A stretch of 61,916 nucleotides of DNA, counting the filler. It is 3 parts of 3 records of this genome, joined end to end, with 100 filler letters (N's around TTAATTAATTAA, not from the genome) between each part and the next. Parts side by side here need not be neighbours in the genome. Positions count along the whole stretch, not along the records: positions 1 to 23,271 come from SRR20825006_1526; 2 more parts are not named here. The stretch is one strand, 5' to 3'. A program made the translations under genes and the position numbers. The notes beneath the pieces were generated by a model, which was given only the letters and a program-made list of their open reading frames with translations, did no database searches and was not told the origin of the DNA. Numbering within the stretch: position 1 is the first letter of the stretch; every line of letters starts with the position of its first letter. Below are positions 1,545 to 23,878 of the stretch, piece after piece.

Positions 1545-1573
1545 CAGGGCACAAGCTCGAACTCAGGTAGAAG

Positions 1574-1933
1574 ATGACGATACAACCGATCAAAAACATG
1601 ATGGTTCTGATGACCATGGGTGCGCTAATGTTCCTGCGCTTCATGGACCTTGCCGTTTTCGACGCTGAACACGCTCATCTTGAGCGGCCACACGTGCAGG
1701 CGCATGCCAGCGAAATGATCCATGATCATGAGCCAGACGAAGTCACGGAGCATGACACCCTTGAAGCGCAGGCTGCGCATGTTGGCTTCCACACACTTCT
1801 CGGGGTTTTCATTGAAACGGTCGATGCGGCTATTGCAATGCCAAACCATTTCTCCCCAAGCTTCGGTTTCCATGCAAAGGATGATGCGCTTGCATTCGCG
1901 CAGCGCCCGCCCATACCCCCTCCCTTGGTCTGA
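1574..1933 (+). CDS. His-rich small exported protein leading the czc operon (CzcI-like)
   Basis: Hydrophobic N-terminus, His/Glu-rich middle, C-terminal RPPIPPP; position directly upstream of czcC. Confidence 0.6.
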   Translation: MTIQPIKNMMVLMTMGALMFLRFMDLAVFDAEHAHLERPHVQAHASEMIHDHEPDEVTEHDTLEAQAAHVGFHTLLGVFIETVDAAIAMPNHFSPSFGFHAKDDALAFAQRPPIPPPLV

Positions 1934-2009
1934 TCTCTTCAAATCTTGACATTCTCGCGTGCGGCAGTCGCTGCGCGCTCTCTGTTGTTTTTTGATGAGA
2001 GTAGACATC

Positions 2010-3320: not shown

Positions 3321-3321
3321 C

Positions 3322-4584: not shown

Positions 4585-7761
<3,177 letters not shown>

Positions 7762-7777
7762 CACCCCAAACCTGTCA

Positions 7778-7803
7778 TGAGGTGGCCCTTCGGGGCCACC
7801 TCA
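7778..7803 (+). other. Perfect 11-bp hairpin with a cUUCGg tetraloop between czcA and dmeF
   Basis: TGAGGTGGCCC-TTCG-GGGCCACCTCA; no strong U-tract follows. Confidence 0.75.
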
Positions 7804-7831
7804 GAGATTTCTCCAAAGTAAGGAACATGAA

Positions 7832-8761: not shown

Positions 8762-8772
8762 GGTTGCGGAAT

Positions 8773-8796
8773 GTCCGCTTTGGGTCGAGAGCGGCT
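8773..8796 (+). repeat. 24-bp imperfect palindrome, copy C (GTCCGCT-N10-AGCGGCT)
   Basis: Begins 12 bp after the dmeF stop; GC content drops immediately downstream. Confidence 0.6.
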
Positions 8797-9322
8797 GAAA
8801 CCAAAAGAATCAATAGCAGGTTTTGAGGATGATCGGCCTGTCGTTAACCAGCAACGGCGCACAAATAGCCTAGGTGAATGCGACGGGTAGGTGATTGTGG
8901 ACACCGCGTTATGGTCCAACAATTTCTTTCGTTTCTATCGAAGTATAATCATGTATATCGCAAACGGCTTATACACGGTTATATTTGAGTATATTTCCCT
9001 GAGGGTGCATGTGATGACTTGGTCGCCCAATGTTAGGCAGAGGTTTGCGGTTTCCCGGTTCGTACACTAATGCTGAGGCATAATTGAATGACATTTTCCA
9101 GTTGTGGATATTACCGCCATCTGGCCGCTGTGATGACTTTTTACGAGATCCATACCGATTGTAGAGCTTGGCAAGTTAAGTTCGCTCGGTCCATCTCATG
9201 TTGCTTTAAACAACGAAGATTAGGAGATCAAAGTTGCGATTCCCCCAAATTTGAGGGGCACTATTTTCGTGGACAAGACGCCGCTCAAATGATGCTCCGG
9301 TAAGCCGCGTGTGAATTTTTGT

Positions 9323-9412
9323 GGGGGTGTAGCTCAGTTGGTAGAGCAGCAGTCTTATATCCCGTAGCGCCAGATAAGCGGCAGGTCGTCGGTTCGATGC
9401 CGACCACCCCTA
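9323..9412 (+). tRNA. tRNA-like gene (Ile-like) with a 24-nt anticodon loop; atypical or pseudo-tRNA
   Basis: Acceptor GGGGGTG/CACCCCT, D-arm GCTC-AGTTGGTA-GAGC, variable loop AGGTC, T-arm GTCGG-TTCGATG-CCGAC, discriminator A; anticodon stem has one A-G mismatch. Confidence 0.75.
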
Positions 9413-9492
9413 TCATCATTTTGATATCCGTTGATTGCAGATACTGGCCGTTGGCGTAGGTGCGTGTATGGCCTCTGAGAGAGGGGGATGTG

Positions 9493-9696
9493 ATGCAGGC
9501 AGATGATGAATATGAATATCGAGTGATCAGGTGGCGGCATTTTGAGAACGAGAAAGTTCAGGAACAAATCGATGAGCTTATTGCAGACGGCTGGGAGGTT
9601 CACGGTGAGGGCTATGTCAAGGCTGGCATGCTTATAGACCTGAGCAATCAGCGATTGCGCCGGAAAAGGCTTCCCGAAGATGAACGGGGAACGTAA
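9493..9696 (+). CDS. Small protein, DUF4177/DUF1737-like
   Basis: GAGGGGG RBS; YEYRVI...IDELIADGWEV pattern. Confidence 0.55.
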   Translation: MQADDEYEYRVIRWRHFENEKVQEQIDELIADGWEVHGEGYVKAGMLIDLSNQRLRRKRLPEDERGT

Positions 9697-9823
9697 TTTG
9701 CGTGCCGGGTTGCGGGCCTTATGGCCTTTTATCCTTCGGTGCGCATCAGATCGAAACTTCCTGCGGTTCTGGTCAAGAACTGTCAGTAACAATGGCGCTC
9801 TCGCCATAGGCTTGGGCGTTCTG

Positions 9824-10081
9824 TTATTGCCGGTCGTTCGCACCGCGGATTGTTGACGGTGTGAGGTCGCCGGTCATGTCAAGGAAAACATGCTGTGCAA
9901 GCGCCATCCGCGTCTGAGGTGACATGGAGGAGTTTTTGGCCAGCGACACGCAGGCCCTGAATGCTGCGCTGATGCCAAATCCCGCCTTGCTGTCATCGTC
10001 GTTCACATAGTCAAAGACAGCATTCACAATCGACAGTTCGAGTTCATGCGCTGCTGCAAGCTTATCTGTTTGTTCGGCCAT
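9824..10081 (-). CDS. Hypothetical protein (85 aa), divergent from the Xre regulator
   Basis: ATG at 10081 with GAGGA RBS. Confidence 0.55.
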   Translation of the reverse strand: MAEQTDKLAAAHELELSIVNAVFDYVNDDDSKAGFGISAAFRACVSLAKNSSMSPQTRMALAQHVFLDMTGDLTPSTIRGANDRQ

Positions 10082-10199
10082 GGTTCCGTTTCCTCGAATA
10101 GAAACCTGAATGTGCAACCAGTATATAGTCGCTGATTTATGGCGTCAAATAGTAGGTATGTATATTCAGTGCCATCCAAACCCGTTGCATTTTACTAGG

Positions 10200-10550
10200 A
10201 TGGATAAACTAGCAAATATCATTGGCGCGCGCATCGGCGCCTACCGGAAGGCCAGAGGCCTGACGCAGGAAGACCTTGCTGGCCTGTCAGCCCGCTCGGT
10301 GTTTACGATATCTCAAGTTGAGCGCGGTGTGAATGCGCCAAATCTTGCCACGCTGATTGATTTGGCTCAGGCACTTGAGTGTGGTCTGGATGAACTCGTG
10401 TTTGGCCGCAGTACCACCGACCAGACCAAAAAAACGAAAGAACACGTGAATCTTGAAGCGCGTCTCGTTGCGGATATTGTCGCGATGGATCTCAAGACGC
10501 TGAAGGCCACGCGCAGCGCGATTAATGCCATTTTTGAAGCTCAAAGCTGA
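10200..10550 (+). CDS. Xre/Cro-CI family HTH transcriptional regulator
   Basis: RKARGLTQEDLA...ISQVERGVNAPNLATLIDLAQALEC. Confidence 0.9.
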   Translation: MDKLANIIGARIGAYRKARGLTQEDLAGLSARSVFTISQVERGVNAPNLATLIDLAQALECGLDELVFGRSTTDQTKKTKEHVNLEARLVADIVAMDLKTLKATRSAINAIFEAQS

Positions 10551-11083
10551 TTTTCCAACATCTCATTCTTTTCACGCAACCTCTCCAGAAGCTTTGCGGG
10601 CATGTTTCGGGGGACAATCTTTATGCTTTTAAAGTAATTGTTAGTTATATATATAATAAAAATAATCACTCTATAAAATAGTGGTTTTATTATACTTATG
10701 TATGGCAATAAATTTGTAGATTAGATTTTCTAAAATGTTGGCGAGTCGCCTCCTTTATTTCGGAAAACATTTTCTAATGCCGTGTTTTTGTCATGAAAAC
10801 TCCCTGCAATTCATAGCCTTAGCGAATATTTATTGACTTGCATTCGACCTCGCGCACCCTAGAGGAGGTGTCAACAGGAGGCCGATATGTCCTGGTGTTT
10901 CATTTTTTGCAACACGCGTAACCTGGTGGCGACGTTGGTGCATTCGGGGATCTTCTATGGGCGCCAAGCCATTGGAGGGTGCTGGATCAACAGCTGTGCC
11001 CTCGCATCTGGCATACAAATCCAAGAGTTAGCTCGTCATCGCCCCACTTTGTTGTCTGCGTGCGGTATTGAGAGGAGGGATTG

Positions 11084-11674
11084 ATGGGTATCGATGTTAC
11101 TCCGCAGACCCGCCTTTTTCTCGAAGGCTATATTGCCAGCAGGAAATCGGACGGTATTCTCAAGTGGCGTGGTGTGGCACAGCAGGCCCTGTTTGAGTAT
11201 CTGGATGTAGACCCCCATGTGCGCCATATTCGTGCGCAAGTGATGTCCCCGGATATCAACGGCATGGCCCGACAAAAGTTTCCGGCGTTGGTGTACACCT
11301 TTTCAGGCACCTATTTTGCCGATTTGCGCCCGGCGGGCGCCCTTCCGAAAGCTCTATCAGAAACCTGCCGGGCCATGCAGCGTGCAGGCCTGCAGCTTCG
11401 GCTTTTTGATCGTGATTTCTTGCTCGATGCTTCCGTCAGGGCAACGGTCACACGCCTGCGACGAAGCCGACGGCAAGTACCGTCTCGTCAACTATTGGAA
11501 AGGCTCGACGCCTACCCGGGTGAATGGCCAGCCACACTGGCTCAGTTGGTGAGCTACCTGGGCACAGAAGGTCACGTGGATCAGCTAATTATCTCCTGCC
11601 AGCTGCAAGCCGACCTGTCAGCAGGCCTTGGACCCGACTGCCTATTATCCCGAAACCCGAAGATGGGAGGATGA
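11084..11674 (+). CDS. tnsA: TnsA-like protein with a degenerate nuclease active site (196 aa)
   Basis: GAGGAGG RBS; S.K...LDVDPHV..I.AQ TnsA N-domain pattern and C-terminal L.ADLS..L; position directly upstream of tnsB. Confidence 0.75.
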   Translation: MGIDVTPQTRLFLEGYIASRKSDGILKWRGVAQQALFEYLDVDPHVRHIRAQVMSPDINGMARQKFPALVYTFSGTYFADLRPAGALPKALSETCRAMQRAGLQLRLFDRDFLLDASVRATVTRLRRSRRQVPSRQLLERLDAYPGEWPATLAQLVSYLGTEGHVDQLIISCQLQADLSAGLGPDCLLSRNPKMGG

Positions 11675-11675
11675 A

Positions 11676-13610
11676 GTGAGTGAACGGATCAAATTGCACG
11701 TCGGTCTTATTTTGTTTGATGGTGATACTGACCTGAAAATCGACGAGTTAGAAACTCGGCATGGGGTGGTGCTCAAGATTGTGGCGAACGGTCGCCATCG
11801 CACAATGAGCAGGGAGGATCTGGAAGCGAAAATTCTCTCAGGTGAATTGACTTTGTTTCAGCCTGAAGAACAAAAGGAAAAGCTCGGCTACAGGGTAGAC
11901 CTAACCGGAAAAGCCAAGGAGGTCTACAGCAGGCGACTTTGGTACGTTACGTCGCTGCACCGTGCGTGTCGCCCCGACCAATCCGTCCGTTCGATTATAG
12001 AGGCTGTGATCCGTGATGTCGCGGTAATCATTGCGGATAAACGTCCGCCAAAGCGAAGTACAGTGGCGAGCTGGTATCGGGAATGGCTCAGGCATGGTAA
12101 AAACAACGACGTTCTGGTGCCTAAATTCCGTGGCCGCGGCCGCAAAAGGCATGCCTTCACGGATGAAGAAATGACGTTCTGCGAACAGGTCATCAAGCGA
12201 GAATTTTTGAAAGTCAATCCACCTTCGAAGCGCGTCATAATCGAAGAAGAAATTATTCCCGGAATTGAAAATATCCGCGCCGCTGCCGGGTACACGGGAA
12301 GAGCAAAGACGGTCAGTAAAGCGACGTGCTATCGTGTCTTCGGGAGCCTTGATTGCTACACTGTTGCGGTCGCCCACCATGGACGCCGCCATGCTGACCT
12401 TCAGTTTCGGGCGACAGGTAAAGGCTATGAGGCCACTGCGCCGCTTCAATATCTCTATGAAGACCATCAGATGCTGCCCATTTACATCCCCTTGCCTGGT
12501 GGGGGTGTCATTCGTCCCTGGCTATATGTCGCGATCGATTTGTTTTCGCGCGTGCCGTGGGCCATTTCCCTTGGGTTTCGAGCGGATTTTGCAAGTGTTG
12601 GCGCTGGGATCCGGCGTGGTATTCTCGGGTATAGTGACCTCCTTTCGAGCCTGCCTTCGGTGGAGAAGGCATACCCGGTTCATGGTCTGGCACACAAATT
12701 GGTGGCCGATCGTGGGGCACCGTTTGTCGGGGAAGCGCACGAGCGGATGTGTGTCGAAATGGGTATTGATACGGTCATTTGCCCGCCCGGTTCACCCAAC
12801 TGGAAAGGCACGATAGAGTCCTTCTTTGGAACGCTTAAGGTCAGTTTTCTGAAAGGTTTGCCTGGCTTCATTCCCGATGTCGAGAATACAACTGAAGTAA
12901 CGCTTGCAGCTCAGAGAGCTTGTATACCTTATCAAGAGCTCTACGAGAGTCTGCATAAGTGGATAGTCGATGTGTATGTTCACCGTTTTCATAGGACACT
13001 CTGCGACATTCCGATGAATAAGTGGGTCGAAGGCGTGAAGCAGTTCCCCGTGGACCTGCCAGCCAGCCCTGAATCGGTGCGCATGAGCTGTTCCATTCAT
13101 GAGACGCGCACACTGCAGAAGCGTGGTATCGAAATTCACGGGACATTTTACCAGAGTGACGAGTTAAAGAGACTTTGGCAGAAGCTCGGGGCTAAGCCTT
13201 TCATAATCGATCTCAGAGTAGACCCTGTAGATATCGGGGCTATTTACGTCAAAGTTCCGAATGAGCAGCGGTTTATCAAGGTGCCGACCGACAAGACGGA
13301 ATACCGAGGGCGCGACCTGTGGCTCCATGAGGCCATAAGGGCTGAGGAAGTGGAGCGCGAGAAGGCACTTATCGCGGGCTCAGACGCGGCGGTGCAAGCA
13401 CGAAAAATCAGGAAGCATCTTACCGCATACGGCCGGAAAGTGGTGCGCGGCAATGATCGAGCTCACGCAGTTGCAGCTCTGAAGACACCGCGGCGACCCA
13501 AGGCAAAGGCGCCTAAAAACACCCTTAATCCGGATGCCTCAACGCACCAAGAGATTGCGACCCTTCGCAAAAGTTTGCAGGATAAAGAGCGAGGTACGTC
13601 CAAATGTTGA
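11676..13610 (+). CDS. tnsB: TnsB-like DDE transposase (644 aa)
   Basis: GTG start with GGAGG RBS; RRLWYV, YEDH, IDLFSR, ADRG, WKGTIESFF (DDE intact); Mu-type C-terminal domain. Confidence 0.92.
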   Translation: MSERIKLHVGLILFDGDTDLKIDELETRHGVVLKIVANGRHRTMSREDLEAKILSGELTLFQPEEQKEKLGYRVDLTGKAKEVYSRRLWYVTSLHRACRPDQSVRSIIEAVIRDVAVIIADKRPPKRSTVASWYREWLRHGKNNDVLVPKFRGRGRKRHAFTDEEMTFCEQVIKREFLKVNPPSKRVIIEEEIIPGIENIRAAAGYTGRAKTVSKATCYRVFGSLDCYTVAVAHHGRRHADLQFRATGKGYEATAPLQYLYEDHQMLPIYIPLPGGGVIRPWLYVAIDLFSRVPWAISLGFRADFASVGAGIRRGILGYSDLLSSLPSVEKAYPVHGLAHKLVADRGAPFVGEAHERMCVEMGIDTVICPPGSPNWKGTIESFFGTLKVSFLKGLPGFIPDVENTTEVTLAAQRACIPYQELYESLHKWIVDVYVHRFHRTLCDIPMNKWVEGVKQFPVDLPASPESVRMSCSIHETRTLQKRGIEIHGTFYQSDELKRLWQKLGAKPFIIDLRVDPVDIGAIYVKVPNEQRFIKVPTDKTEYRGRDLWLHEAIRAEEVEREKALIAGSDAAVQARKIRKHLTAYGRKVVRGNDRAHAVAALKTPRRPKAKAPKNTLNPDASTHQEIATLRKSLQDKERGTSKC

Positions 13611-14503
13611 CCGAGGATGAAGTTGAAAAGCGTGTGACAATTCTGGGAGCGCTCGATCACCAATACCAAGTGTACGACCAAATCGATCGGTTAGCCCGTG
13701 AACTCCGGCTCTTTCACTGCAGCATGAAAAGAGCGAAATCGGGCAAGATGATGCTTGTTCAGGGACCGACGGGTCTGGGTAAAACAAGCTTGATGGAGTT
13801 TTTTGTCCGCCGGAACGGAGGAAGTGTCCTTGGTGGTGGCACCATCTTGGTTGTCTACGTTCCTCCGAATAGCACGGTCAAAAATTTAGCCACAGCCGTC
13901 TTGGAGGCACTTGGCGATCCTCGGGCTGAAAAAGGCCGGACTTCAGAGCTCACCACTCGCGCTGTCGGTCTTATAAAGGACCTGAAAGTCTCTGCCGTGG
14001 TGTTTGACGAGTTGAATCACTTTATCGATCGCGAAACAGAGAAAGTTCTTGAAAAATGTGTCGACTGGTTCAAAGCCCTTATTGATAAAATCCACCTTTC
14101 GATCTTCGTGTTCGGCCTTCCTAAGATGACACAAGTCATTTCGTCCAGCGAGCAGTTGCATCGCCGGACCCAACGGATTGTTACCGTTCAGCCATTTGGC
14201 TTTACATCCCAGGACGAGATTGAGGCCTTTCAATGTTTATTGCTCTTTCTAAGCGATGCGATGCCTTTCGCTAACGCCTCTATGTTGGCGACAAAAGCCA
14301 TGGCAGCACAAGTTCACCGGGCAACCCTGGGGCGGGTAGGGTTTGTTTCGCGGCTTCTGATCGCGGCTGGGCTAGAGGCCTTGTCACAGCGTCGGGAGGA
14401 GATTGTGGCCAAAGATCTCTGGTGCGCTTTTAACCAGTTGTGCAGCCAAGAAAAAGATCTGGAAGGCGTCGGAAACCCTTTCTCGGATCAATGGTGTGAT
14501 TGA
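13604..14503 (+). CDS. tnsC: TnsC/TniB AAA+ ATPase
   Basis: Walker A GPTGLGKT, Walker B VVFDELNH, QLHRR arginine finger; overlaps the tnsB stop. Confidence 0.92.
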   Translation: MLTEDEVEKRVTILGALDHQYQVYDQIDRLARELRLFHCSMKRAKSGKMMLVQGPTGLGKTSLMEFFVRRNGGSVLGGGTILVVYVPPNSTVKNLATAVLEALGDPRAEKGRTSELTTRAVGLIKDLKVSAVVFDELNHFIDRETEKVLEKCVDWFKALIDKIHLSIFVFGLPKMTQVISSSEQLHRRTQRIVTVQPFGFTSQDEIEAFQCLLLFLSDAMPFANASMLATKAMAAQVHRATLGRVGFVSRLLIAAGLEALSQRREEIVAKDLWCAFNQLCSQEKDLEGVGNPFSDQWCD

Positions 14504-15707
14504 GCGTAAAATCCCGTCCCGGCCGCTTCGTGATAGGCCACTCGCTTTCCCTATCTTTGTGGTACCGCACGCCCGCGAAAGTTTTGTTGGCTATCTGATG
14601 CGGTTGACTGCGGCCAACTATTATCCGTCGATCAAAGCCATCGCCGAGACCTACGGGTGTCATATCGAGCCGCGGAAGGAATATCTGGCAACCCTCCGGC
14701 TCTTGGCCGAGAAGATGGACGCCGACGCTGGCTACTTCGCCGGTCGCTTTACCAGAATGACATTTAAGCCGGAGCGGAAGCCGGCAAACTTCGTGTTTGT
14801 GCCGGGCGGTGAAGTGGCTCGGGCAAAAAATGTGGATGTCCAGGCACGTCGCTTCTGCGCAGAATGCCTGGCGGAAGACGGGTTTTTCTACCGTTGCTGG
14901 GAGCTGCGCGTATTCACCGCATGTCCTCGTCACAACACGATGTTGTGCGACCGCTGTCCTTCTTGTGGTGCCCGGCTTACCTGCTTCCGCCCCGATCCAT
15001 TGAGCTGTGGTGAATGCGGTGCTGCTCTGTATGAGGCGAAATCGCGCCCGGCCACGGAACCAGCTCTCAAATTGTCCCGTCTGGTTGCCCATAAGGCGGG
15101 GAAGTGGGGACTAGGTCTCGGAATTAACGACTGTCATAGAATAGCAGATGTGATGTCGCTCGGCGAACTGCTCACGACCTTGGAGCTTCTTTATCGCTAT
15201 CATCCTGAGCGGAAAAACGAGGTGAACGATTTCGACCGGCCGGAATTCGCGAAATTGGTGGTGCCAGCCATCGAGCACTGGCCAACGAGTTTCCACAACT
15301 ATCTCCGCCAATGCCACGAAGCCCGCTTATTGGACGAAGCCGTCAGTGAAAGCGGCCTTTGGAACTCTCTGGGGCGGCTCTATCCGACTTTGTACGGGGT
15401 CAAGCAGGTCGTCACAGTAGATAGCTGTCTCAACGAAACACATAATTTTATTATTCAGGAAGAAATCAGGTTGGGCGTCACCGGGTGCGGCGGCGCACGA
15501 GGCTTCGATCCGCTACAGGCTAATTTTCTGACAAAAAGGGATGCTTGCGCGCGCCTGTCGATCGGGAAACGGGAGTTCGACCGGTTGGTGGCTAGCGGCC
15601 ATTTGAGAGATCAACCTTTGTGGCACGGCAAGCGGATTACGCACCGGGTGCCCGTGTCAGACGTGCGCGCCTATGAAGCGAGGCAACGGGCGCAAAGGGA
15701 ACTATGA
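14496..15707 (+). CDS. tniQ: TniQ/TnsD-family target selector with C-terminal HTH (403 aa)
   Basis: P...ESFVGYLMRL, FCAECL, CPRH, CPSC, CGEC zinc ligands; GTG start overlapping the end of tnsC. Confidence 0.9.
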   Translation: MIERKIPSRPLRDRPLAFPIFVVPHARESFVGYLMRLTAANYYPSIKAIAETYGCHIEPRKEYLATLRLLAEKMDADAGYFAGRFTRMTFKPERKPANFVFVPGGEVARAKNVDVQARRFCAECLAEDGFFYRCWELRVFTACPRHNTMLCDRCPSCGARLTCFRPDPLSCGECGAALYEAKSRPATEPALKLSRLVAHKAGKWGLGLGINDCHRIADVMSLGELLTTLELLYRYHPERKNEVNDFDRPEFAKLVVPAIEHWPTSFHNYLRQCHEARLLDEAVSESGLWNSLGRLYPTLYGVKQVVTVDSCLNETHNFIIQEEIRLGVTGCGGARGFDPLQANFLTKRDACARLSIGKREFDRLVASGHLRDQPLWHGKRITHRVPVSDVRAYEARQRAQREL

Positions 15708-15713
15708 GCTCCC

Positions 15714-16862
15714 TCAAGGGGGTGAGGGCTCCTGACTGTCCACCTCGATCGGCTGAAACAGCGTCCGCGTCACGCTCTGCCTTCGCCGCTCCGCATCCCT
15801 GATATAGGTCATGGCCTGTTTGGCGGTGCGCAGCCGGGTTTGGGTCATGATGGCCTTGAGGTCGCAGCCGGCGTCAGCGGCGGAGGTGGCCAGCCCGGCG
15901 CGCAGGCTATGTCCGCTATAGACGGTGCGGTCGAAGCCGAGGGCTTCGACCGCATCCTTGACGATACGCGCGACGGTTTGCTCGCTGATCCCTTTGTCCC
16001 GGAAACTGCCGTTCCTGTTCGCACACAGGAAGAGCCGGCTGCCGCTTTCGGGCCGGATCTTGAGCCAGGCTGTGAGGGCTTTGATTGGGCACAAGCGCGC
16101 GTCAGGATGGGGAGAGATGAAGATCTTCTCGCCAAGACCAAAACGGTCCGCCTTGGAGCGGGGTAGGAAGAGCGTGAGACCGTCTCTGGCGAGGGTGACA
16201 TGCTCCAGCGCCATTTGGGAGATCTCGGTGCGCCTGAGCGCGCCAGCGAAGCCGAGGAGCACCATGGCTTTGTTGCGAATATCGAGCGGGCAATCATCAA
16301 ACACATCCATAAGCGCGGGCAGCGCCCGATAGTGCAGCGCGCGAGCTTGGCGGCGCGGCGCGAGGCCTTTCTCGCGCGCCGCTCCTTGCCACACCAGCCG
16401 GATCGCTTCGTGGCGGGTGTCGAGCTTGATGCCGGCGAGGCGGTGCGCGACCGAGATCACCGCGAGCCGGGCCTTGAGGGTCGAGGGCAGCACCTTTTTC
16501 GAGAGCATGGCCAGATAGAGTGCGACGATGCCAGGGTCGCCGGAGAGCGGTTTGACCCCAATGCCGCGGCACCAGTCCTCATACTGGCGCCAGCCGGCCC
16601 GGTAGGCCCGTTTGGTATTCTCCGAACGCGCCATCGAGGAGAGTTCGCGTACCCGGGCATACACTTCATCCAGGTCGTGTTGTAGCGCTTCCTGGACCGG
16701 AAGCCACCCCATAAGAAGGGCAGCGTCCGCGTCGGCGGTTGTAAACAGATTGGTGGCAGGTGCGTCAGGCGTGAGGCCTTGGTCCGCCTCGAGGGGAGGT
16801 GACAACGGTGGCCGATCGGCCGTTTCATCGGCTTTTTCGGGGTCGGACATGGTGGCGAGCAT
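15714..16862 (-). CDS. Cre-like tyrosine site-specific recombinase
   Basis: RSENTKRAY..W, GALRRTE, RSKAD, YSGHSLRAG, MTYIR. Confidence 0.93.
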   Translation of the reverse strand: MLATMSDPEKADETADRPPLSPPLEADQGLTPDAPATNLFTTADADAALLMGWLPVQEALQHDLDEVYARVRELSSMARSENTKRAYRAGWRQYEDWCRGIGVKPLSGDPGIVALYLAMLSKKVLPSTLKARLAVISVAHRLAGIKLDTRHEAIRLVWQGAAREKGLAPRRQARALHYRALPALMDVFDDCPLDIRNKAMVLLGFAGALRRTEISQMALEHVTLARDGLTLFLPRSKADRFGLGEKIFISPHPDARLCPIKALTAWLKIRPESGSRLFLCANRNGSFRDKGISEQTVARIVKDAVEALGFDRTVYSGHSLRAGLATSAADAGCDLKAIMTQTRLRTAKQAMTYIRDAERRRQSVTRTLFQPIEVDSQEPSPP

Positions 16863-16869
16863 AGCACAA

Positions 16870-16902
16870 TTATCATCGATAACCGAAAGTTATCGATGAT
16901 AA
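16870..16902. promoter_or_regulatory. Putative recombinase crossover/operator site (13-bp arms, 7-bp asymmetric spacer)
   Basis: TTATCATCGATAA-CCGAAAG-TTATCGATGATAA, a perfect inverted repeat just upstream of the recombinase start. Confidence 0.8.
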
Positions 16903-17127
16903 ATATATTGAACGGAAAATGAAGGCCGACGAGAGAAATGCGGATGCAAACTTCATGCGTCCAGCGTTAACCATATTTGAGTGTGGGCCGAATGCGTGCT
17001 TCACTGTCTCTGGTTGTGAGGGCTTGCTGGGGAGCGCTTTTGCTCGTGACAGGTGTGAAAATATTTGGCTAAGTTGCGGCCATGCATTCAGGTTCAGCCG
17101 ACGTCTGATGCCAAATGGGAGCACGCA

Positions 17128-18162
17128 ATGCCAGAAACACCGCCAACCGTCCTGTTGCACGGCGTATGGATGAAAGAATATCAGGGATATGAGGCCCCGC
17201 CTTCCTTTTATGCTGGCGGTTTTAAATGGCCCGCCGAATTGGACTGGAGCCATGAAATGTTCAATTTTCTGAACATCGATGGATACTGTTACGGCCATGT
17301 CCAATATGCCTTGTCATCCGGTCAGCCGAAACAGCTCAATCTTCAAAACCTGGGGGCGGCGCCCAAAGATCAAGCCATCGAGGGTGTGAGAGTAGTCTGG
17401 ACGGCACCTGCCCGCCAAGGCAAAGGAAAAGCGATCGTGGGGTGGTATGACAACGCCACTCTCTACCGTTACCCGCAAGAACATGATGATGAAAACGCGA
17501 AGAAAATGCGGACCTATAAAGGCGAACAGTTCACCTTCAGAGTGAAAGCGAAAGCGCGAGACTGTCATCTGCTCCCGCTCAGTAAACGCACAACCATCAT
17601 CCCGACAGCCCAAGGCAGAGGGAGTGGATGGCCCGGTCAGGCGCCGGTTTTTTATCTCAATAAAGCGACAGACCAATGTGCGCATATCCAGGCGGCGATC
17701 AACGATATTGTCGCCGGACGTGTGCCTCGACCGCTGACAAAAAAGGCGAAGCGCCGTGTCGATGTGGAAAATAATAAGCGTGTGGAAAAGAGTGCAATCA
17801 AGCACGTCAAACGGCATTTCGTTGGCTTGGGCTATAGCGTCGAGTCTTTTGAAGACCAAAATTTGGGGTATGACCTGAAGGCCCAGCGGGCAGACACCAC
17901 GCTATGCATTGAGGTTAAAGGACGATCAGTGCCTGATGTGCAGGCAGAGTTTAGTCCGAATGAGACAAAGAAGATGAGGGCATTTGAAAAAGGTCATTTT
18001 GCAGATGGCATATACCGAATATGCATTGTGACCGACGCGCTCACGGATCCCAAGCTGCACGACTTTGAATATGTGCCAGAGGGGCGGTACTGGTACGATT
18101 TCAGTCGCGAAATTCGCCTGAAAGCCAAGGAAATAATTGCGTTGAGATTGGAGGGAGTTTGA
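17128..18162 (+). CDS. Two-domain nuclease with C-terminal DUF3883 (PD-(D/E)xK) domain (344 aa)
   Basis: VEKSAI...LGYDLK...IEVKGR; N-terminal WMKEYQG...IVGWYDNATLYR domain; GGGAG RBS. Confidence 0.8.
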   Translation: MPETPPTVLLHGVWMKEYQGYEAPPSFYAGGFKWPAELDWSHEMFNFLNIDGYCYGHVQYALSSGQPKQLNLQNLGAAPKDQAIEGVRVVWTAPARQGKGKAIVGWYDNATLYRYPQEHDDENAKKMRTYKGEQFTFRVKAKARDCHLLPLSKRTTIIPTAQGRGSGWPGQAPVFYLNKATDQCAHIQAAINDIVAGRVPRPLTKKAKRRVDVENNKRVEKSAIKHVKRHFVGLGYSVESFEDQNLGYDLKAQRADTTLCIEVKGRSVPDVQAEFSPNETKKMRAFEKGHFADGIYRICIVTDALTDPKLHDFEYVPEGRYWYDFSREIRLKAKEIIALRLEGV

Positions 18163-18206
18163 CAGGGTTTCCCGTTGCCATGCCGCCCTTCCAAGCGCAT
18201 TCGGGT

Positions 18207-18419
18207 TTAGAATTTGCGGATGAATTTCTGGATATGGTAGCGCGCTCGCAAATAAATTGCTTGCCGGTCCTTCAGTGACGAAAACATCGGCCTCAGGTCG
18301 TTAATTTCACGGGGGTGGAAAGAATCCACGCCTTCGAAATCATACTCGGTGCCGACGCGCTTCAACGCACTACTGAGCAACTTGCTCAAGGCTAGTTTCA
18401 GGGCGCTATCAACCATCAT
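18207..18419 (-). CDS. Small hypothetical protein (70 aa), possible fifth gene of the motor-like operon
   Basis: ATG lies within the last codons of the upstream 359-aa gene. Confidence 0.4.
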   Translation of the reverse strand: MMVDSALKLALSKLLSSALKRVGTEYDFEGVDSFHPREINDLRPMFSSLKDRQAIYLRARYHIQKFIRKF

Positions 18420-19488
18420 AGGCTTTTGATCCCCGCTCGCTTTTATAGAAGATATTTTCAACACTGTGGCGCAAGGTTTCGGCTGAATTTACATCGGTCA
18501 GGTCAGGCGTGCGAAAGAGCCGAACATAAAATCGACAGTCCAGCGTGCTGTTACCAAACGGCCTGCCATCCCGCCCTTGTTCGGCATTGTTTGTGATGGC
18601 AGCTCTGTCGTAGAAGGGCTTGAACGCGCGGCGAAACTCTTCGGCGGAAAGGGGTCTCTCTAGTGGTAGCGTGCCCAACGTCGCATACCAATCCGTATAC
18701 CAGCCATACTCTGGCCGAGGGGGGACACCATCGCCCTGGATGACCATGATACCTTCAGGCGAAAGGTAAATGTCGAAGCTGTAGAGAATGCTCCCTTCGG
18801 ACAGAATCCCATCTAACGACATATTCGACTTTAAACATGACGCCGGCTCCAAATTCGCGAGGGTTGCCGCAAACTTTTGGATGAGACCTTCCTTTTCCAT
18901 GTCGCACGATTTGAGCTTGCCGGCACATGTAATGGCGTCATCAATGTTCCCGCCTTGTTGCTGCAAGGCCAGTCGCTCACCCATGACCTGTTCGATAACC
19001 GCGCCTGGGTTTTCCTGCGGTTTAAGCTGTTCGGCCTGGGCGACCAAAACATCCTTATTGGGTAACTTTTCTTCTATTTTTTTTAGTTCGGCCTCTGCTT
19101 TGGCGACTTCTTTGATACGCTCAACCACTTCATCCATCTTTGATGGGTCGTCGGAAATTTTTGAAAGTGTACTTCTCAGTTGATCAATTTCTTCACGGGC
19201 CGTGGCATATTCGTTGGCAATAAGCTGCAACTCATCGAGAGGGCGATCCAGGTCTTGCGGATCGATTTTTCCCGGCAACTTCTCTGGCTGTTGGACTTCG
19301 AAAATACTCTCGATCCCCTCTCGCCAACGCTTGATCTCAGCCGTCAGGTTATCCTGCTCCTTGTCCTTTTGGTCGATGACATCTGTAAAAAGGAGAAGAA
19401 ACAGGAAAAGCAGAATGAGCAGTGTTTCCGCTAGAGTGAGGCCGAGAAGTGTTCCACGGCGATACTCTGTATCCGATTGCCGCATCAC
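18409..19488 (-). CDS. MotB/ZorB-like single-TM coiled-coil protein with a non-OmpA C-terminal domain
   Basis: N-terminal LTLAETLLILLFLFLLLF helix; 4-bp overlap with the MotA-like gene. Confidence 0.7.
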   Translation of the reverse strand: MMRQSDTEYRRGTLLGLTLAETLLILLFLFLLLFTDVIDQKDKEQDNLTAEIKRWREGIESIFEVQQPEKLPGKIDPQDLDRPLDELQLIANEYATAREEIDQLRSTLSKISDDPSKMDEVVERIKEVAKAEAELKKIEEKLPNKDVLVAQAEQLKPQENPGAVIEQVMGERLALQQQGGNIDDAITCAGKLKSCDMEKEGLIQKFAATLANLEPASCLKSNMSLDGILSEGSILYSFDIYLSPEGIMVIQGDGVPPRPEYGWYTDWYATLGTLPLERPLSAEEFRRAFKPFYDRAAITNNAEQGRDGRPFGNSTLDCRFYVRLFRTPDLTDVNSAETLRHSVENIFYKSERGSKAYDG

Positions 19489-20969
19489 CGTTTGCCTCGG
19501 CCAATTTCATCAGCGAGAAAATTTGCTGTTTCAGCAAGTGTGTTCACATAGGCACTGCTGTTCTTTTTGAATTCGTCGACGCCTGCGTTGAGCGATGTAC
19601 TGGTGGCAGAGATCTGCGTACCGGAGCGTTTTACCTCATCGGCCAACGCTGCCAAGCTATGTGTCACATCTGAAACTGAAGAGTGTTCGTCCTTGATAGA
19701 CTTCGCGAGTTCCTGAATATCTGCTGTGATATCCTCAAGACGCCTGTTCAGGTTGACACTTTTGTCATTGAGATTTGTATATAGCAAATCGGTGTCGCTG
19801 ATGATGCGACGGGTATGGTCGCGTTGTTCCTCAAGGCTGCGGATGAACTCGGTGATGATGTCTGTTGGGACCTGAACTTTTTCCAATTGGGTGGAGAATG
19901 TACTGATCGCTTGCAAAAAGCGGCCAAATTCTTCCCGTTCACTCTTCGCACCATCACGAATTATCTGACTGGTTTCAGCCATATGTGTCACCGCTTCTGC
20001 CATAGAGTCCCGAGCGCTTTTGAGGATTTCTTTGGTTTCTTCCGCAAGCGCCCTTTGTGATTCAATATGGGCAGTGCTCATTTCTTTCACGTTCTCATGA
20101 GATGTTGTCTCGATCTCCTTGAAGCTCGCCGCGAACGTGTCCTTCACGGCCAAGGAGTGATCTTCCAACACACGAGAAAACGCAGTTGCCCGCTCAACGG
20201 AACTGATGAGTGCGTGCTCAAGGTCTTGCACGGTGTTTTTGAGGACAACCATTGCACTTCGCTCCAGGTCTTCTACCCCCTCACGGAACTGGATCAGGAT
20301 TATTCGCGATATGATACCGGCGATTGTGGATCCGAGCGCGACACCAAACCCCGACAAAATCTGTTCAGCCGCACCAGCGCCGAAATCTCCGCGGATCAGT
20401 ACAACAGACATGCTGGTAAGTGTATACACCAAGCCAAGGTAGTAGGCGTTGTCACCGGCGCGGTCGACCCGAATTCCCTCGTTTCGCATCATATAGGCGA
20501 GATATGCGTATCCGCCGACGAGTACCATTGAAGTGCCGGTAATGATCCATGTGGGTAGCAAGCCGAAAAGTTTGGTAAAAAAGACGAAGGCCACGCCGAC
20601 CACCAATACGGCAATGAATGCTTGTTTTTCCTTTTGGTCCGACACTTTGTACCGGGGTACATCTCGCGTAACACTGGACACATTATCGTCATGGGGGCCG
20701 TTGAAAAAACGCCCCCCAAGCCAGTTCGACGGATTAGTCGGCTTCCCCAAGGACGCCGTATCGACATCGCTTTCGCCTTCGCCTTCCTTCTGTGCCTCAG
20801 GGTCAACTGCACTAATGTCTTCTTCCTGAGGGGATGATACATCTTTTTGATCAAGTGGCGTGTCGTCCACTTGTTGACTTTCCGCCACTTCAGGTGTGTC
20901 GGCATCACCTGCGTCTGTGGCGAGATCCTGCTCGGTGTCTTCGCTCGCAGGTTTTGATTTTTTCCTCAT
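19485..20969 (-). CDS. MotA/TolQ/ExbB (ZorA-like) membrane protein with a long helical tail
   Basis: YYLGLVYTL and GFGVALGSTIAG match the LGLLGT / GIxxALxTTxxG channel helices; long C-terminal heptad region. Confidence 0.75.
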   Translation of the reverse strand: MRKKSKPASEDTEQDLATDAGDADTPEVAESQQVDDTPLDQKDVSSPQEEDISAVDPEAQKEGEGESDVDTASLGKPTNPSNWLGGRFFNGPHDDNVSSVTRDVPRYKVSDQKEKQAFIAVLVVGVAFVFFTKLFGLLPTWIITGTSMVLVGGYAYLAYMMRNEGIRVDRAGDNAYYLGLVYTLTSMSVVLIRGDFGAGAAEQILSGFGVALGSTIAGIISRIILIQFREGVEDLERSAMVVLKNTVQDLEHALISSVERATAFSRVLEDHSLAVKDTFAASFKEIETTSHENVKEMSTAHIESQRALAEETKEILKSARDSMAEAVTHMAETSQIIRDGAKSEREEFGRFLQAISTFSTQLEKVQVPTDIITEFIRSLEEQRDHTRRIISDTDLLYTNLNDKSVNLNRRLEDITADIQELAKSIKDEHSSVSDVTHSLAALADEVKRSGTQISATSTSLNAGVDEFKKNSSAYVNTLAETANFLADEIGRGKR

Positions 20970-21001
20970 GACGGGCCCCCAATATCCCAGTTAGTACTCG
21001 C

Positions 21002-21883
21002 TTAAAGCCTGAACTGCGTCTCGCATTCCACAACGTATTCGCCGAGATTGTCAGCGACATATTCGGCCCAGAAATTCAATAGTCTCGGAGTTTGGCGTGC
21101 GCGCTCTAGCGCATCAGACCGACTTATTCGGATCATGCAGACTTTGGCTCCTCCAAGGTCGGTCCGAAGCTTTACATACTCGGGTCTTTTTTTGAGTGCG
21201 CTGAAATCAGGGCTTTCGCGATAGACAGAGAATGCAGGGCTGTTCTGGAGCAAGTCGGAGACGATGATCATATATTTAGATGACATGGCGTCAGCCGACC
21301 GGAAGGCCACATCGCCGATGGAAGCAATACTTTCTGCAATGGGTGACTGATTTACCGCTTCTGCTTTTAGCCCACCGGAAATAACCTGAGTAACTTCTTG
21401 CCAAAATCGATTGTGATAGCTCCGAACCAACTGAGCATTATCATTGGCTGATGTCGGCTCCTGCCCAGGAAAGCAGATTGATAATAGCGGCGCGATAGCC
21501 TCATCAGCTGCCGCCTGAAGGTTGTAAATATCTATACGATCGCCTTTGCTCAGGCCTGTGCCTGTTGAGGAATATTCGGATCCGGGCACAGTCGAAATTG
21601 CCCTGCGTATGCTGCTCATGAGAGCAGCTTGCTGGCGGGCGTCAAACCCCCCGCTCGCATCAACCCCGATCGCGACAATGTTCTTCGGAGGGCATTCCTT
21701 TGAACAGAAATTTGTGCTGGCATAATCACATTTGTCGTCATTGATCACCAGATAGGCAACCGTACCGAAGAGGCCGGCCATCAACAAAAGTCCGGCGCTC
21801 CGTCTCAATAACTCAAACGAAAAAAATGACTGACCCCGTCGGGCCCGTTGGGGCCGTGAACGGTGATTTCGGGGGCGCCTCAT
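21002..21883 (-). CDS. Membrane-anchored vWA-like protein
   Basis: N-terminal TM; IGVDASGG (DxSxS-like), QSPIAESI, IIVSDLLQNS. Confidence 0.65.
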   Translation of the reverse strand: MRRPRNHRSRPQRARRGQSFFSFELLRRSAGLLLMAGLFGTVAYLVINDDKCDYASTNFCSKECPPKNIVAIGVDASGGFDARQQAALMSSIRRAISTVPGSEYSSTGTGLSKGDRIDIYNLQAAADEAIAPLLSICFPGQEPTSANDNAQLVRSYHNRFWQEVTQVISGGLKAEAVNQSPIAESIASIGDVAFRSADAMSSKYMIIVSDLLQNSPAFSVYRESPDFSALKKRPEYVKLRTDLGGAKVCMIRISRSDALERARQTPRLLNFWAEYVADNLGEYVVECETQFRL

Positions 21884-23268
21884 GCGTCTACTCCCTCAAG
21901 CAGCTTATCGACTTTTTCTTGAAGCTGATCGACCTTGTTGAATGCTTCGTTCTGATAGGCTTCGGCTCTTGGCCTTTCGGTCTCGGCAAGTTTGTGGGCT
22001 TGCTCCGCCAAATCTCTGGCTTCTTTGAGATTGATAGTAAAGTGATCGGGCAGTTCTATCGTACTAACCGCTTGCTCCTCGATGGCAGAAAACCACGGGG
22101 GAATATCCCCTTCCAGTACATCCGATTTATACCGCTTGAGGAAAACATCCGTCGCTGATCGGCAACTGTCGCAGAACCGGACTATTTCTTTCTCGAAACC
22201 ATCAATTTTAGCCACGTGCATATCGATGTTTTGGAGACGGGGCTGCAGCATTCTGAGGTAGTCACTAATTTCGTCGAGCACTTCGTTCCTCAAGTCGACG
22301 ATTGACTCTCGGAGAGTCTCGCTTGGAACTAAAAAGTTATCGTGCCGCTCCTGCAGTTTCTTTTCCCGTGCTGCATATTCAGTGATAGGGTCTCCGTAGT
22401 TATGGCCTTTGTACCAAGCATATATTCCCATGATTATCCCGATGACGAACATCAGGACGGCCGTGAGGTCCAGAAAACCAATTCCATGCTTCGAAAAATA
22501 GGTGACAACAGCCTCGAAGAGCGCCCCTTCAGAGGGCAGTGCCATGATGTCGCCATTCTCCAGACTTTTCGACGCCAGAGCGGCTTGTGAGCGATACATG
22601 CTCACAATCCAGTGAAAGAATGGCATGACGGTGATTGCAAAGATTACCGCTAAAAAGGCGCAGACCTTGCGCCAAAGGAAGCGAGTGTAAAATCCTTTGG
22701 TGCCAAAATAGCCGACAAGAAACATCACGCTCAAGTTTGCAAAGCCAATCAACATCGACAGAATAATCGCCACCACGAGATTGGGTGACACCGGCGCAAT
22801 CATCGATATGTTGCCAAGGGCTTCAATGGCGAGAATGCCAATGAGATCATAAAAGTATTTGTGGTCCGGTTTTTCAATGGCTGGTCGGGTAAGGCCGTTC
22901 AGCGCACGGTAATTATCAAAATCGGCTTTTTCTTCCTGATATTTTGTTTTCGCTTCTCGCAACTTGGGCAATTGGCGCCTAACCTCTTGCTTCATGTCTT
23001 CGAGCGCTTCTTTGATTTTGATCACCCGAGTTTCGAAATCTATTTCGCTCCGAATTTCCAGCATCAGAGTGCGAAAAGACGCATACCTCTTATCGGTGTC
23101 CGATTGTTCCCGTGCAAAGATCGTTCGCACACGCTGTACAAAAGATGTAGCCTGGTTGTTGTCGAATTCACGTTTTTCGATTTCAGTGGCTTTTTGCTTG
23201 CGCTGCATCTTAAGCGATGGCCAGCTAATTTCAGCCATCAGCTTATTAATATCTATGACGTCAGCCAT
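21880..23268 (-). CDS. Multi-TM membrane protein flanked by coiled coils (may be N-truncated by the contig end)
   Basis: About 4 hydrophobic helices between long helical regions; ATGA overlap with the vWA gene; ATG is 3 bp from the gap. Confidence 0.75.
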   Translation of the reverse strand: MADVIDINKLMAEISWPSLKMQRKQKATEIEKREFDNNQATSFVQRVRTIFAREQSDTDKRYASFRTLMLEIRSEIDFETRVIKIKEALEDMKQEVRRQLPKLREAKTKYQEEKADFDNYRALNGLTRPAIEKPDHKYFYDLIGILAIEALGNISMIAPVSPNLVVAIILSMLIGFANLSVMFLVGYFGTKGFYTRFLWRKVCAFLAVIFAITVMPFFHWIVSMYRSQAALASKSLENGDIMALPSEGALFEAVVTYFSKHGIGFLDLTAVLMFVIGIIMGIYAWYKGHNYGDPITEYAAREKKLQERHDNFLVPSETLRESIVDLRNEVLDEISDYLRMLQPRLQNIDMHVAKIDGFEKEIVRFCDSCRSATDVFLKRYKSDVLEGDIPPWFSAIEEQAVSTIELPDHFTINLKEARDLAEQAHKLAETERPRAEAYQNEAFNKVDQLQEKVDKLLEGVDA

Positions 23269-23271
23269 ATC

Positions 23272-23371
23272 NNNNNNNNNNNNNNNNNNNNNNNNNNNNN
23301 NNNNNNNNNNNNNNNTTAATTAATTAANNNNNNNNNNNNNNNNNNNNNNNNNNNNNNNNNNNNNNNNNNNN
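23272..23371. other. Artificial contig linker
   Basis: 44 N + TTAATTAATTAA (stops in all six frames) + 44 N. Confidence 0.98.
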
Positions 23372-23878
23372 GCCCATTTCCCAGAAATTATCTTTTTTAT
23401 TTCCGTTTAAAATGCGGTCTTCAGCTACGTGTTTTTTCCACATATCATAAGCTTCAGCATCACGCTCAAGCCCTTCAGCATCGTCGCCTTCAAAAATGGT
23501 CACATAAAGTTTACTCTTATCAATCTTATAAACTTCGGTAAGTAATTCCCAAGCCCAATCGATCGCATCTTGTTTAAAATAATCTCCAAAACTCCAGTTC
23601 CCCAGCATCTCAAACATCGTGTGATGGTAGGTATCTTTACCCACTTCTTCTAGGTCATTATGCTTTCCGCTCACGCGTAAACATTTCTGAGTGTCAGTGA
23701 CACGCGTATCTTTTGGAGTTCCGTTACCCAGAAAAAATTCCTTAAATTGGTTCATTCCGGCATTGGTGAACATCAACGTAGGATCGTTTTTGATCACCAT
23801 AGGCGCAGAGGCCACGATGGAATGGTTTTTGGACTTAAAAAAAGATAGAAATTGATCGCGTATTTCTTGGGATTTCAT
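23372..23878 (-). CDS. alaS: Alanine--tRNA ligase (5' part, truncated by the gap)
   Basis: [41 protein letters not shown]. Confidence 0.97.

Follow-up and report, generated by a model that had tools for sequence, protein, structure and literature searches.

A conserved, unnamed gene cluster that joins a vWA-fold protein to a putative MotAB/ZorAB-type ion motor

The cassette and its four protein families

We have analyzed a stretch of DNA of 61,916 nucleotides (the window), in which three contigs are glued together by N44-TTAATTAATTAA-N44 linkers at 23272-23371 and 48828-48927. Our subject is a cassette of four genes, named here g1 to g4, at the end of its first contig (contig A, 1-23271). The genes are co-directional and tightly packed on the minus strand, 23268..18409; g1 and g2 overlap by 4 bp, a 32-bp gap separates g2 from g3, and g3 and g4 overlap again by 4 bp. 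A preliminary description of the window, made by looking at the letters, had reported co-directional open reading frames (ORFs) of 462, 293, 494 and 359 amino acids (aa) with these same junctions, and we recover them all. The coordinates of the genes and of their parts are collected in Table 1.

The cassette is a real, widespread, and unnamed gene cluster. In a motif scan using one genome per species, 63 stretches matched and 56 were confirmed, and we work with the 55 loci that encode a relative of g3. After one profile round, g3 is present in 55 of these loci, g2 in 54, g1 in 52, and g4 in 51, with most of the misses at contig ends, and the order is always g1-g2-g3-g4 on one strand. This is clustering far beyond chance. 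The preliminary description had proposed conservation in other genomes as a check on its own reading, and the 55 related loci, identical in order and strand, show this conservation. Its view that the system is undescribed also stands: g1 and g2 have no match in PADLOC 2.0, no such system is named by PADLOC, Pfam or NCBIfam, and our full-text literature search found no description of the cassette. In the public records that we looked up, it is annotated as three cases of 'hypothetical protein' and one 'OmpA family protein'. One paper considered as a description of the locus (PMC11406972) was rejected; it concerns Pal.

The stator-like subunit is g3. It has hydrophobic helices at residues 117-135, 134-152 and 208-226 and an amphipathic helix at 168-193, and its four predicted transmembrane helices (109-135, 140-164, 168-193 and 200-227) are connected by loops of 13 residues or fewer, with no strand predicted. 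The long tail that the preliminary description had reported is indeed predicted to be helical, and in the AlphaFold2 (AF2) model it breaks into helices at 232-300, 302-363, 369-428 and 433-493. The acidic N-terminal extension is present as well (the first 110 residues are acidic and disordered, with 26 D+E vs. 11 K+R), but it turns out to be lineage-specific. What the family conserves is the core RxDQAGDNxYYLGLxYTLxS ... FGxALxSTIxGIxxR, in which D173, Y176, Y177, G179, T183, F208, G209, A211, T215, G218 and R222 are invariant across 46 sequences.

Different comparisons, sub-threshold wherever they rest on sequence, place g3 near the known stators. The Pfam family PF01618 matches the window's g3 at residues 170-228 (profile positions 51-110) with 13.5 bits and an E-value of 0.063. 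It is found at E<=0.1 in 10/46 relatives, with a best value of 7.8e-5, and in whole-genome scans it falls on the g3 gene with 16.7 bits in the genome of the window's own organism (G002, see below) and with 12.5-19.2 bits in 4/5 further genomes. All the matches for which we have coordinates occupy the same region of the profile, ~50-110. Among the PADLOC models, those for ZorA are the commonest and strongest for the g3 family (PDLC00635 in 26/46, best ZorA E-value 2.8e-10), ahead of LmuB (PDLC03859, in 11/46, best 1.3e-6) and of the JetC coiled-coil models. In the ESM Atlas, residues 100-260 reach 0.94 and 0.91 by features to clusters with 13% PF01618 members, and by structure they reach a template modeling (TM) score of 0.60 to a ZorA-like/MotA_ExbB cluster and of 0.56 to a pure PF01618 cluster. 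An hhalign comparison of the g3 core with 6 mixed MotA/ExbB/TolQ proteins gives P 28% (E 6e-4), and in that one run T183 and T215 fall on the pair of motif Thr that TolQ/ExbB-type proteins encoded in the same genome have. A sequence search of the PDB with g3 alone returned nothing, the g3 profile mostly drew in coiled-coil proteins there, and the NCBIfam scan produced coiled-coil noise only.

Directly downstream, g4 has the architecture of MotB. After a short N-terminus comes the single transmembrane helix with an acidic residue that the preliminary description had noticed, here Glu21, then a coiled-coil linker, and finally a Cys-containing C-terminal domain without known fold or family; there are four Cys downstream of the helix. 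The N-terminal motif of the family is YRRGxxLGLTxAE, and E21 is found in 43/43 sequences. An OmpA domain (PF00691) is present in 20/43 g4 relatives (best 6.5e-5), and the ZorB1 model PDLC00610 matches 20/43 (best 2.1e-9), the window's g4 not being one of them. The branch of the family to which the window belongs has a C-terminal domain of ~115 residues with two conserved Cys (PPCW...CRFYVR), and the two types of C-terminal domain are unlike by hhalign (P 0.2%). A profile search of the PDB with g4 found nothing useful. The stator-like reading of the pair is strengthened because the stop and start of g3 and g4 overlap, because the transmembrane Glu is invariant, and because 20/43 relatives carry the OmpA/ZorB-type domain. 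Altogether, we think it likely that g3 and g4 are a motor of the MotAB/ZorAB type.

The protein encoded by g2 had been called a vWA protein, and structure searches of its predicted model agree that it has the vWA fold. The AF2 model has a predicted local distance difference test score (pLDDT) of 85 and a predicted TM score (pTM) of 0.79. Foldseek against the PDB gives 59 matches at E<=1e-3, among the matches listed mostly vWA-type domains, and the top 50 of VIA-align, with Z 9.4-11.8 over 153-190 residues, are nearly all of vWA/integrin-I type; bacterial vWA proteins, BatB, and pilus-tip adhesins are among them. The ESM Atlas concurs. By sequence, Pfam does not match g2 with any model, those for vWA included, and a PDB profile search gave nothing useful. 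Residues C60, D75, S180, S209, D210 and W272 are invariant, all 39/39 sequences have S or T at position 77, and position 79 is mostly Pro in relatives and Gly in the window (VDASGG there vs. VDxSDP in most relatives). Thus, g2 may be said to keep part of a putative metal ion-dependent adhesion site (MIDAS), with D75, S/T77, S180 and D210. Of its Cys, six of which come after the transmembrane helix, C60 is found in all relatives and C137 in 38/39. We infer that the vWA domain lies in the periplasm, because basic residues stand just before the helix and because of the conserved pair C60/C137. Only ~20 residues separate the helix from the first strand, and the transmembrane columns 25-43 contain no His, Asp or Glu in 39 sequences.

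The ORF of g1 starts 3 nt from the end of the contig (23271), so its 5′ end is cut. The length of 462 aa given in the preliminary description is thus correct for the ORF in the window but not for the gene, which encodes 494 aa in the 100% identical Kordiimonas chromosome (L001, 5606-7090), and an alignment of relatives backs the longer start. In the 494-aa numbering, the transmembrane helices are at 171-189, 196-214, 236-254 and 294-312, and E181, N185, N210, R258 and G309 are invariant in an alignment of 42 sequences, which also has a DDPYPGYG motif. g1 belongs to no known family: no Pfam family appears in more than 1/42 members, and there is no NCBIfam, PADLOC or convincing PDB sequence match. 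A profile search with g1 returned just 2 proteins, a number limited by the word index on which it ran.

A 251-bp direct repeat of 90.8% identity (L001 1208-1457 and 5558-5808, 4.1 kb apart) duplicates the region upstream of g1 and its first ~68 codons. Its second copy corresponds to ~23162-23271 of the window and continues past the end of contig A, which breaks inside the repeat. Between the two copies lie a PIN-domain ORF, an Endonuclease_NS gene with a signal-peptide-like N-terminus, and a fragment of a DDE transposase.

The fifth gene of 70 aa that the preliminary description had added as a possibility, g5, we regard as doubtful. We rejected it as a member of the system: it is found in L001 only, the other 54 loci have nothing related to it, and Pfam, PADLOC and NCBIfam give no match.

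Table 1. Cassette genes, parts of their products, and adjoining features, in window positions
Feature	Residues	Position	Strand	Description
g1		21880..23268	-	462-aa ORF; polytopic, 4 predicted transmembrane helices, coiled-coil N- and C-terminal regions
g2		21002..21883	-	293-aa ORF; N-terminal transmembrane anchor and vWA-fold domain
g2 transmembrane anchor	29-47		-	N-terminal
g2 vWA-fold domain	~63-293	21005-21697	-	AF2 model
g3		19485..20969	-	494-aa ORF; divergent MotA/ExbB/ZorA-like subunit
g3 4-helix membrane core	117-228	20286-20621	-	helix prediction
g3 helical tail	232-493	19491-20276	-	helix prediction
g4		18409..19488	-	359-aa ORF; MotB/ZorB-like subunit
g4 transmembrane helix	14-32	19393-19449	-	after short N-terminus
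g4 Glu21 codon		19426-19428	-	invariant transmembrane Glu
g5		18207..18464	-	doubtful 85-aa ORF, 70 aa from first ATG
NOV_C protein		17065..18162	+	365 aa; convergent neighbor; PF13020 at 3.8e-8; restriction-endonuclease-like
Artificial contig joint		23272..23371	.	N44 + TTAATTAATTAA + N44; DNA beyond is another contig, ~40% GC

Hosts, mobility, and neighboring genes

The hosts of the cassette are mainly Alphaproteobacteria (Hyphomonadaceae, Maricaulaceae, Sphingomonadales, Geminicoccaceae, Caulobacterales), together with some Gamma- and Betaproteobacteria and single bins of Acidobacteriota, Gemmatimonadota and Ignavibacteriota. A locus binned as Phycisphaerales (L030) equals one in a Sphingobium metagenome-assembled genome (MAG; L031) both in ORF lengths and in profile E-values, which suggests a binning error and not a planctomycete host. 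The cassette is also found in Sphingomonas desiccabilis, and annotated plasmids with all four genes come from Rhizobium johnstonii 3841 (pRL11, RL_RS31080-31095), Sinorhizobium fredii NXT3 and Paracoccus yeei.

Its distribution is patchy. Using g2 as a marker, we find it in 25/401 sampled genomes of its class; for comparison, a ZorA model is found in 10/301 genomes at the stricter cut-off of 1e-20. Among clusters made at 50% identity, a profile of g2 collects 3,581 at E<=1e-3, of which 1,240 reach E<=1e-30, and the tree of g2 is at odds with taxonomy, with classes and phyla intermixed. There are 24 plasmid records with g2, by type 11 conjugative, 4 mobilizable and 9 non-mobilizable. We also observe no conservation across loci in the regions that flank the cassette.

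The window's own copy comes from Kordiimonas. A single stretch of the chromosome of a Kordiimonas sp. MAG (L001/L077, G002) matches positions 11488-23271 with 100% identity and positions 1-11487 with 99.98%. Contig A has a GC content mostly of 50-61% (44% in its first 2 kb), whereas the other two contigs have 36-44%. Because the contigs differ in GC and contig A matches the Kordiimonas chromosome, the assembly probably mixes two organisms. The alaS fragment at 23372-23878 is part of the second contig.

There is a hint that the cassette is expressed in a related strain. RNA-Seq contigs of one study (runs X14-X16), from a strain with 95-99% identity, cover parts of g1-g4 within 18175-23268, and one of them, of 2024 nt, spans 21453-23268, crosses the g1/g2 junction, and runs beyond the end of the contig. 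Over the NOV_C gene (17000-18044) the runs X12 and X14-X16 provide no RNA-Seq contigs, and that strain may lack the gene. Rfam reports no family on L001 1-11000. Promoter-like sites number 3 vs. a shuffled mean of 5.4, and terminator-like sites 12 vs. a shuffled mean of 6.4 (sd 2.6).

The cassette often has a nuclease gene nearby. Of 48 eligible loci, 20 have an SNase-like ORF <=3 kb from the cassette, in most cases on the strand of g4 and 100-540 bp downstream of it; several of these ORFs open with a hydrophobic stretch that looks like a signal or an anchor, and some have an Excalibur domain. Other loci have other nucleases: an S1/P1 nuclease comes after g4 in one locus (L006), a 'thermonuclease family protein' stands beside the cassette of the rhizobial plasmids, and in the window's organism the Endonuclease_NS gene mentioned above lies upstream, past an insertion sequence (IS) fragment and beyond the end of the contig.

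Defense genes are also found nearby. A PADLOC search of the 138 proteins encoded within three genes of the cassette in 24 loci finds 11 proteins, in 7/24 loci, that match defense models at E<=1e-10: Avs2, IetA/IetS, PDC-S02, PDC-S18, PDC-S36, PDC-S37/Hhe, a type I restriction endonuclease, a type II methyltransferase, and a MkoA-like protein. As examples, L019 (1183-5754) has complete-looking IetA and IetS and a PDC-S36 NOV_C protein beside the cassette, L026 (11769-16388) has a complete-looking Avs2 (1757 bits), and L048 (10608-16193) has a PDC-S37/Hhe-like helicase-nuclease of 1862 aa directly downstream. Peptidoglycan enzymes adjoin three cassettes: an SLT (L014), an RlpA-like protein with DPBB and SPOR (L004), and PBP1A (pRL11). 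The NOV_C protein that converges on the window's cassette was considered as a conserved fifth gene and rejected, as such a protein stands beside only 2/24 loci and the likeness between the two ends with the domain itself; that of the window may be an independent defense gene.

On contig A, a Tn7/Tn5053-type tniABQ set lies to one side of the cassette and IS remnants to the other. TniA, TniB and TniQ are encoded at 11628-15707, a tyrosine recombinase is also beside the cassette, and the cassette may be cargo of the tniABQ element. The ends of the element were not found: when we looked through 26 kb past the cassette for inverted repeats that pair with the tniA-proximal region, a single 13-bp match with an E-value of 0.58 came up. 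Within 1959-8761 and 10110-16862, the contig contains a CzcCBA-type resistance-nodulation-division (RND) efflux set with a CzcD-type cation efflux gene, followed by an XRE-type repressor, the Tn7/Tn5053-like tniA-tniB-tniQ and the tyrosine recombinase. Not far from the czc region, in flanking Kordiimonas sequence, ARAGORN reports a tRNA-Ile (L077 2074-2166, minus strand) with anticodon TAT and an unusual length of 93 nt.

A possible motor-driven defense and its alternatives

We propose that g1-g4 encode one accessory and mobile machine of the inner membrane, built round a very divergent MotAB/ZorAB-type stator, ZorAB-like, running on proton-motive force (PMF), and defensive. We give this reading a probability of about one half. 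In this machine, g3 would form the ring, with its four transmembrane helices, the invariant T183 and T215, and a long helical tail that, like that of ZorA, is cytoplasmic, and a dimer of g4 would be the axle inside that ring (a 5:2 assembly), with a transmembrane Glu replacing the usual Asp. The periplasmic end of g4 would grip the wall, through the OmpA-like domain in half of the family and through a disulfide-type domain in the window's branch. The vWA domain of g2, with its partial metal site and conserved Cys pair, would be the periplasmic part that binds a ligand or receives force. And g1, which has polar transmembrane residues and two cytoplasmic coiled coils, would be the likely partner of the g3 tail, either as output or as regulator.

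A disturbance of the envelope or a ligand (a phage, or another DNA-transfer device) would then be caught by g2/g4, proton flow past Glu21 and the T183/T215 ring would turn or strain the complex, and the output would be a local action against the incoming DNA. At ~4/10 loci that action could be performed by the co-encoded secreted or membrane-anchored nuclease, outside the cytoplasm, and elsewhere it could go through g1. As for a widespread but unnamed class of ion-motor immunity that would be a distant cousin of Zorya, in which the vWA protein senses, a periplasmic nuclease is under the control of a Glu-type proton motor, and the partner with four transmembrane helices signals, we consider it conceivable but doubtful.

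Several observations weigh against the proposal of a PMF-driven defensive machine. Regarding the motor, the PF01618 scores of the g3 family (12.5-19.2 where bits are shown) are all below the Pfam gathering cut-off of 22.9 bits. The MotA/TolQ/ExbB-like pair of the preliminary description is supported by the consistent, if sub-threshold, matches of g3 and by the ZorB and OmpA matches in relatives of g4. The ZorA models cover only residues 231-487 of the window's g3, which is the tail (profile ~332-634), with a best E-value of 2.5e-5, and the composition of a coiled-coil tail can by itself yield matches; SMC, MCP and myosin match g3 too. When the g3 core is aligned by hhalign to 30 TolQ-type proteins the result is P 0.9%, equal to the reversed control, and to 8 ZorA proteins it is P 0.5%. 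The AF2 model of the whole g3, made with 17 sequences, is poor (pLDDT 57.9) and has no Foldseek match at E<=1e-3, a result that is uninformative rather than negative. Pfam does not find the OmpA domain in the window's own g4, so wall binding by that particular protein is a supposition. Asp is described as essential in MotB, ExbD and TolR (PMC12204202), and g4 has Glu.

Regarding defense, the window's locus has no SNase, we find no phage records with g2, the 7/24 loci with defense neighbors are a raw count, and many loci are among ordinary metabolic and transport genes (L025, L039, L052, L003). The RNA-Seq contigs may come from DNA in the libraries. Extracytoplasmic nucleases would act in a place where phage DNA, on its way in, is commonly regarded as protected. 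The preliminary description had called the system probably defensive; the grounds that we find for this putative role are the neighbors and the patchy distribution.

Could the likeness to a stator be superficial altogether, and the four proteins a static membrane scaffold or a stress-response complex? The sub-threshold PF01618 scores, the failed hhalign runs against TolQ and ZorA, the tail-only ZorA matches, and the poor g3 model would all be expected then. But one same short region of PF01618 is matched repeatedly in independent members, polar residues are invariant in the two motif helices (T183, T215, D173, R222) just as the Glu is in the partner's helix, the genes follow the MotA-then-MotB order with overlapping stop and start, 20/43 of the partners have the OmpA/ZorB-type domain, and the structural neighbors in the Atlas are MotA/ExbB/ZorA clusters. 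Thus, we find the absence of a motor very improbable. If there is a motor, it could alternatively be non-immune, with g3/g4 energizing g2 as a TonB/TolA-like periplasmic force transducer in a task of the envelope: remodeling of the wall or outer membrane, adhesion, or the uptake or breakdown of extracellular DNA as a nutrient. The nucleases suit this reading, as SNase with Excalibur, S1/P1 and Endonuclease_NS are secreted kinds, non-specific for the sugar, that also serve nutrition. It would also fit the peptidoglycan enzymes beside some cassettes (pRL11, L004, L014) and the 17/24 loci without a PADLOC defense match within three genes. Furthermore, membrane-tethered vWA proteins near tolQ/tolR-like genes were proposed in 2025 to be motor-driven transducers (PMC12204202). 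We nevertheless take a purely envelope role to be unlikely. g2 does not have the features of either of the published transducer families (there is no transmembrane His, Asp or Glu, and the linker has ~20 residues), we did not find a conserved outer-membrane partner in the cassette loci, and the long tail of g3 and the cytoplasmic coiled coils of g1 would have no role in a purely periplasmic task. A presence in 25/401 genomes and on plasmids and mobile regions fits an accessory role in conflict better than housekeeping, and strong defense matches adjoin 7/24 loci.

The conflict might also be one between mobile genetic elements. The cassette would then be a weapon or barrier that plasmids, integrative and conjugative elements, and transposons carry for their own benefit, to keep out or break down not phage DNA but DNA that comes in through conjugation or transformation. 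Transforming DNA crosses the periplasm unshielded, within the reach of periplasmic nucleases. Of the 24 plasmid records with g2, 11 are typed conjugative and 4 mobilizable, L045 has TraG/VirD4-type and VirB11-type genes directly downstream, integrases flank L020, and tniABQ and a recombinase are beside the window's copy. On the other hand, long chromosomal contigs with no transfer genes nearby hold the majority of the 55 loci, and we consider this possibility quite unlikely. It is, in any case, a variant of the PMF-driven defense that we propose, and the data presented here do not separate it from defense against phages.

Comparison with known systems

The closest known system is Zorya, in which ZorAB is an anti-phage motor of 5:2 stoichiometry that works with the effectors ZorC/D, ZorE or ZorF/G (PMC11946911). 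The likenesses are several. g3 has a long C-terminal helical tail, predicted to be cytoplasmic, as ZorA does; g4 is directly downstream and has an acidic transmembrane residue, to which half of the family adds a wall-binding domain of OmpA type; in PADLOC, the g3 and g4 families find their best matches in the ZorA and ZorB models; and the cassette is accessory, patchy, near other defense genes, and linked to nucleases. There are also differences. PADLOC finds no match to ZorC, ZorD, ZorE, ZorF or ZorG in g1, g2, g5 and the 138 neighbors of 24 loci, and the partners here are a coiled-coil protein with four transmembrane helices (g1) and a membrane-anchored, presumably periplasmic, vWA protein (g2). 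The nucleases linked to the cassette are predicted to be extracytoplasmic, whereas those of Zorya are cytosolic. The loops of g3 leave no room for the membrane-proximal domain of ZorA with its beta-hairpin and Ca2+ site, and its tail of ~190-260 residues compares with ~500 in E. coli ZorA (223-729); the transmembrane Glu of g4 stands against Asp26 in ZorB, whose peptidoglycan-binding domain is dimeric (PMC11946911). Because there is no ZorC-G and no membrane-proximal domain, because Glu replaces Asp, and because the partners are new and the nucleases extracytoplasmic, the cassette is outside Zorya as defined, but it may work like Zorya.

With MotAB/PomAB and ExbBD/TolQR, the cassette shares the A-then-B gene order, the four MotA-like transmembrane helices of g3, and the conserved Thr of a putative two-helix motif (a ring of Thr lining the motor pore is described in PMC12204202). 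It also shares the one transmembrane helix with a protonatable acid in g4 and the OmpA-like anchoring of many members. It differs from them in that g3 is below the PF01618 cut-off, has no torque-generating domain between its second and third transmembrane helices, and has a long tail; in the Glu instead of Asp; and in the lack of flagellar, TonB, TolA or Pal partners. The preliminary description had noted the absence of flagellar, TonB and Tol-Pal genes, which is so for ORFs of >=150 aa in 1-23271, while elsewhere in the source genome there are five canonical genes of PF01618. The same Kordiimonas genome also has a second, unrelated long-tailed MotA-like gene (L061, G002:C1:1139093-1142278). 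It encodes 407 aa that score 18 bits against PF01618, and after it comes a gene whose MotB-like product has a transmembrane Asp and a coiled coil. A survey of MotAB does not mention such a cluster as ours in its accessible part (PMC12505986).

The vWA force transducers of PMC12204202 also have an inner-membrane-tethered periplasmic vWA protein beside a MotA/TolQ-like gene, so that the coupling of vWA domains to 5:2 motors is already in print, in different gene clusters, and the idea is not fully new. One of the published families has a TolA/TonB-like transmembrane helix with a SHLS/His motif and a long disordered linker, and g2 has neither; in the other, which comes without a tolR of its own, the pore helix is TolR-like and contains Asp, and g2 lacks this helix. 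The published clusters, as far as described in the part of the paper accessible to us, have no g1 and no long-tailed A subunit, while g2 comes with a MotB-like partner of its own, g4; it is by the published descriptions that these families are set apart from g2 (PMC12204202).

In GldLM, the 5:2-type ion motor of gliding and of type IX secretion (T9SS), the key protonatable residue is a Glu, on the ring subunit; it is specific to Bacteroidota, and we take its families to be unrelated to g3 and g4. To our knowledge, the uses of 5:2 ion motors are few: flagella, Ton, Tol, gliding/T9SS, and Zorya. If our reading is true, the cassette adds another one, with two new partners and an unusual Glu on the axle. 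If it is defensive, it would be an immunity acting in the periplasm, before the DNA enters the cell; and if it is not, it would be a new PMF-driven device of the envelope. The family is not rare, and it is present in tractable bacteria such as R. johnstonii 3841 and Sphingomonas desiccabilis.

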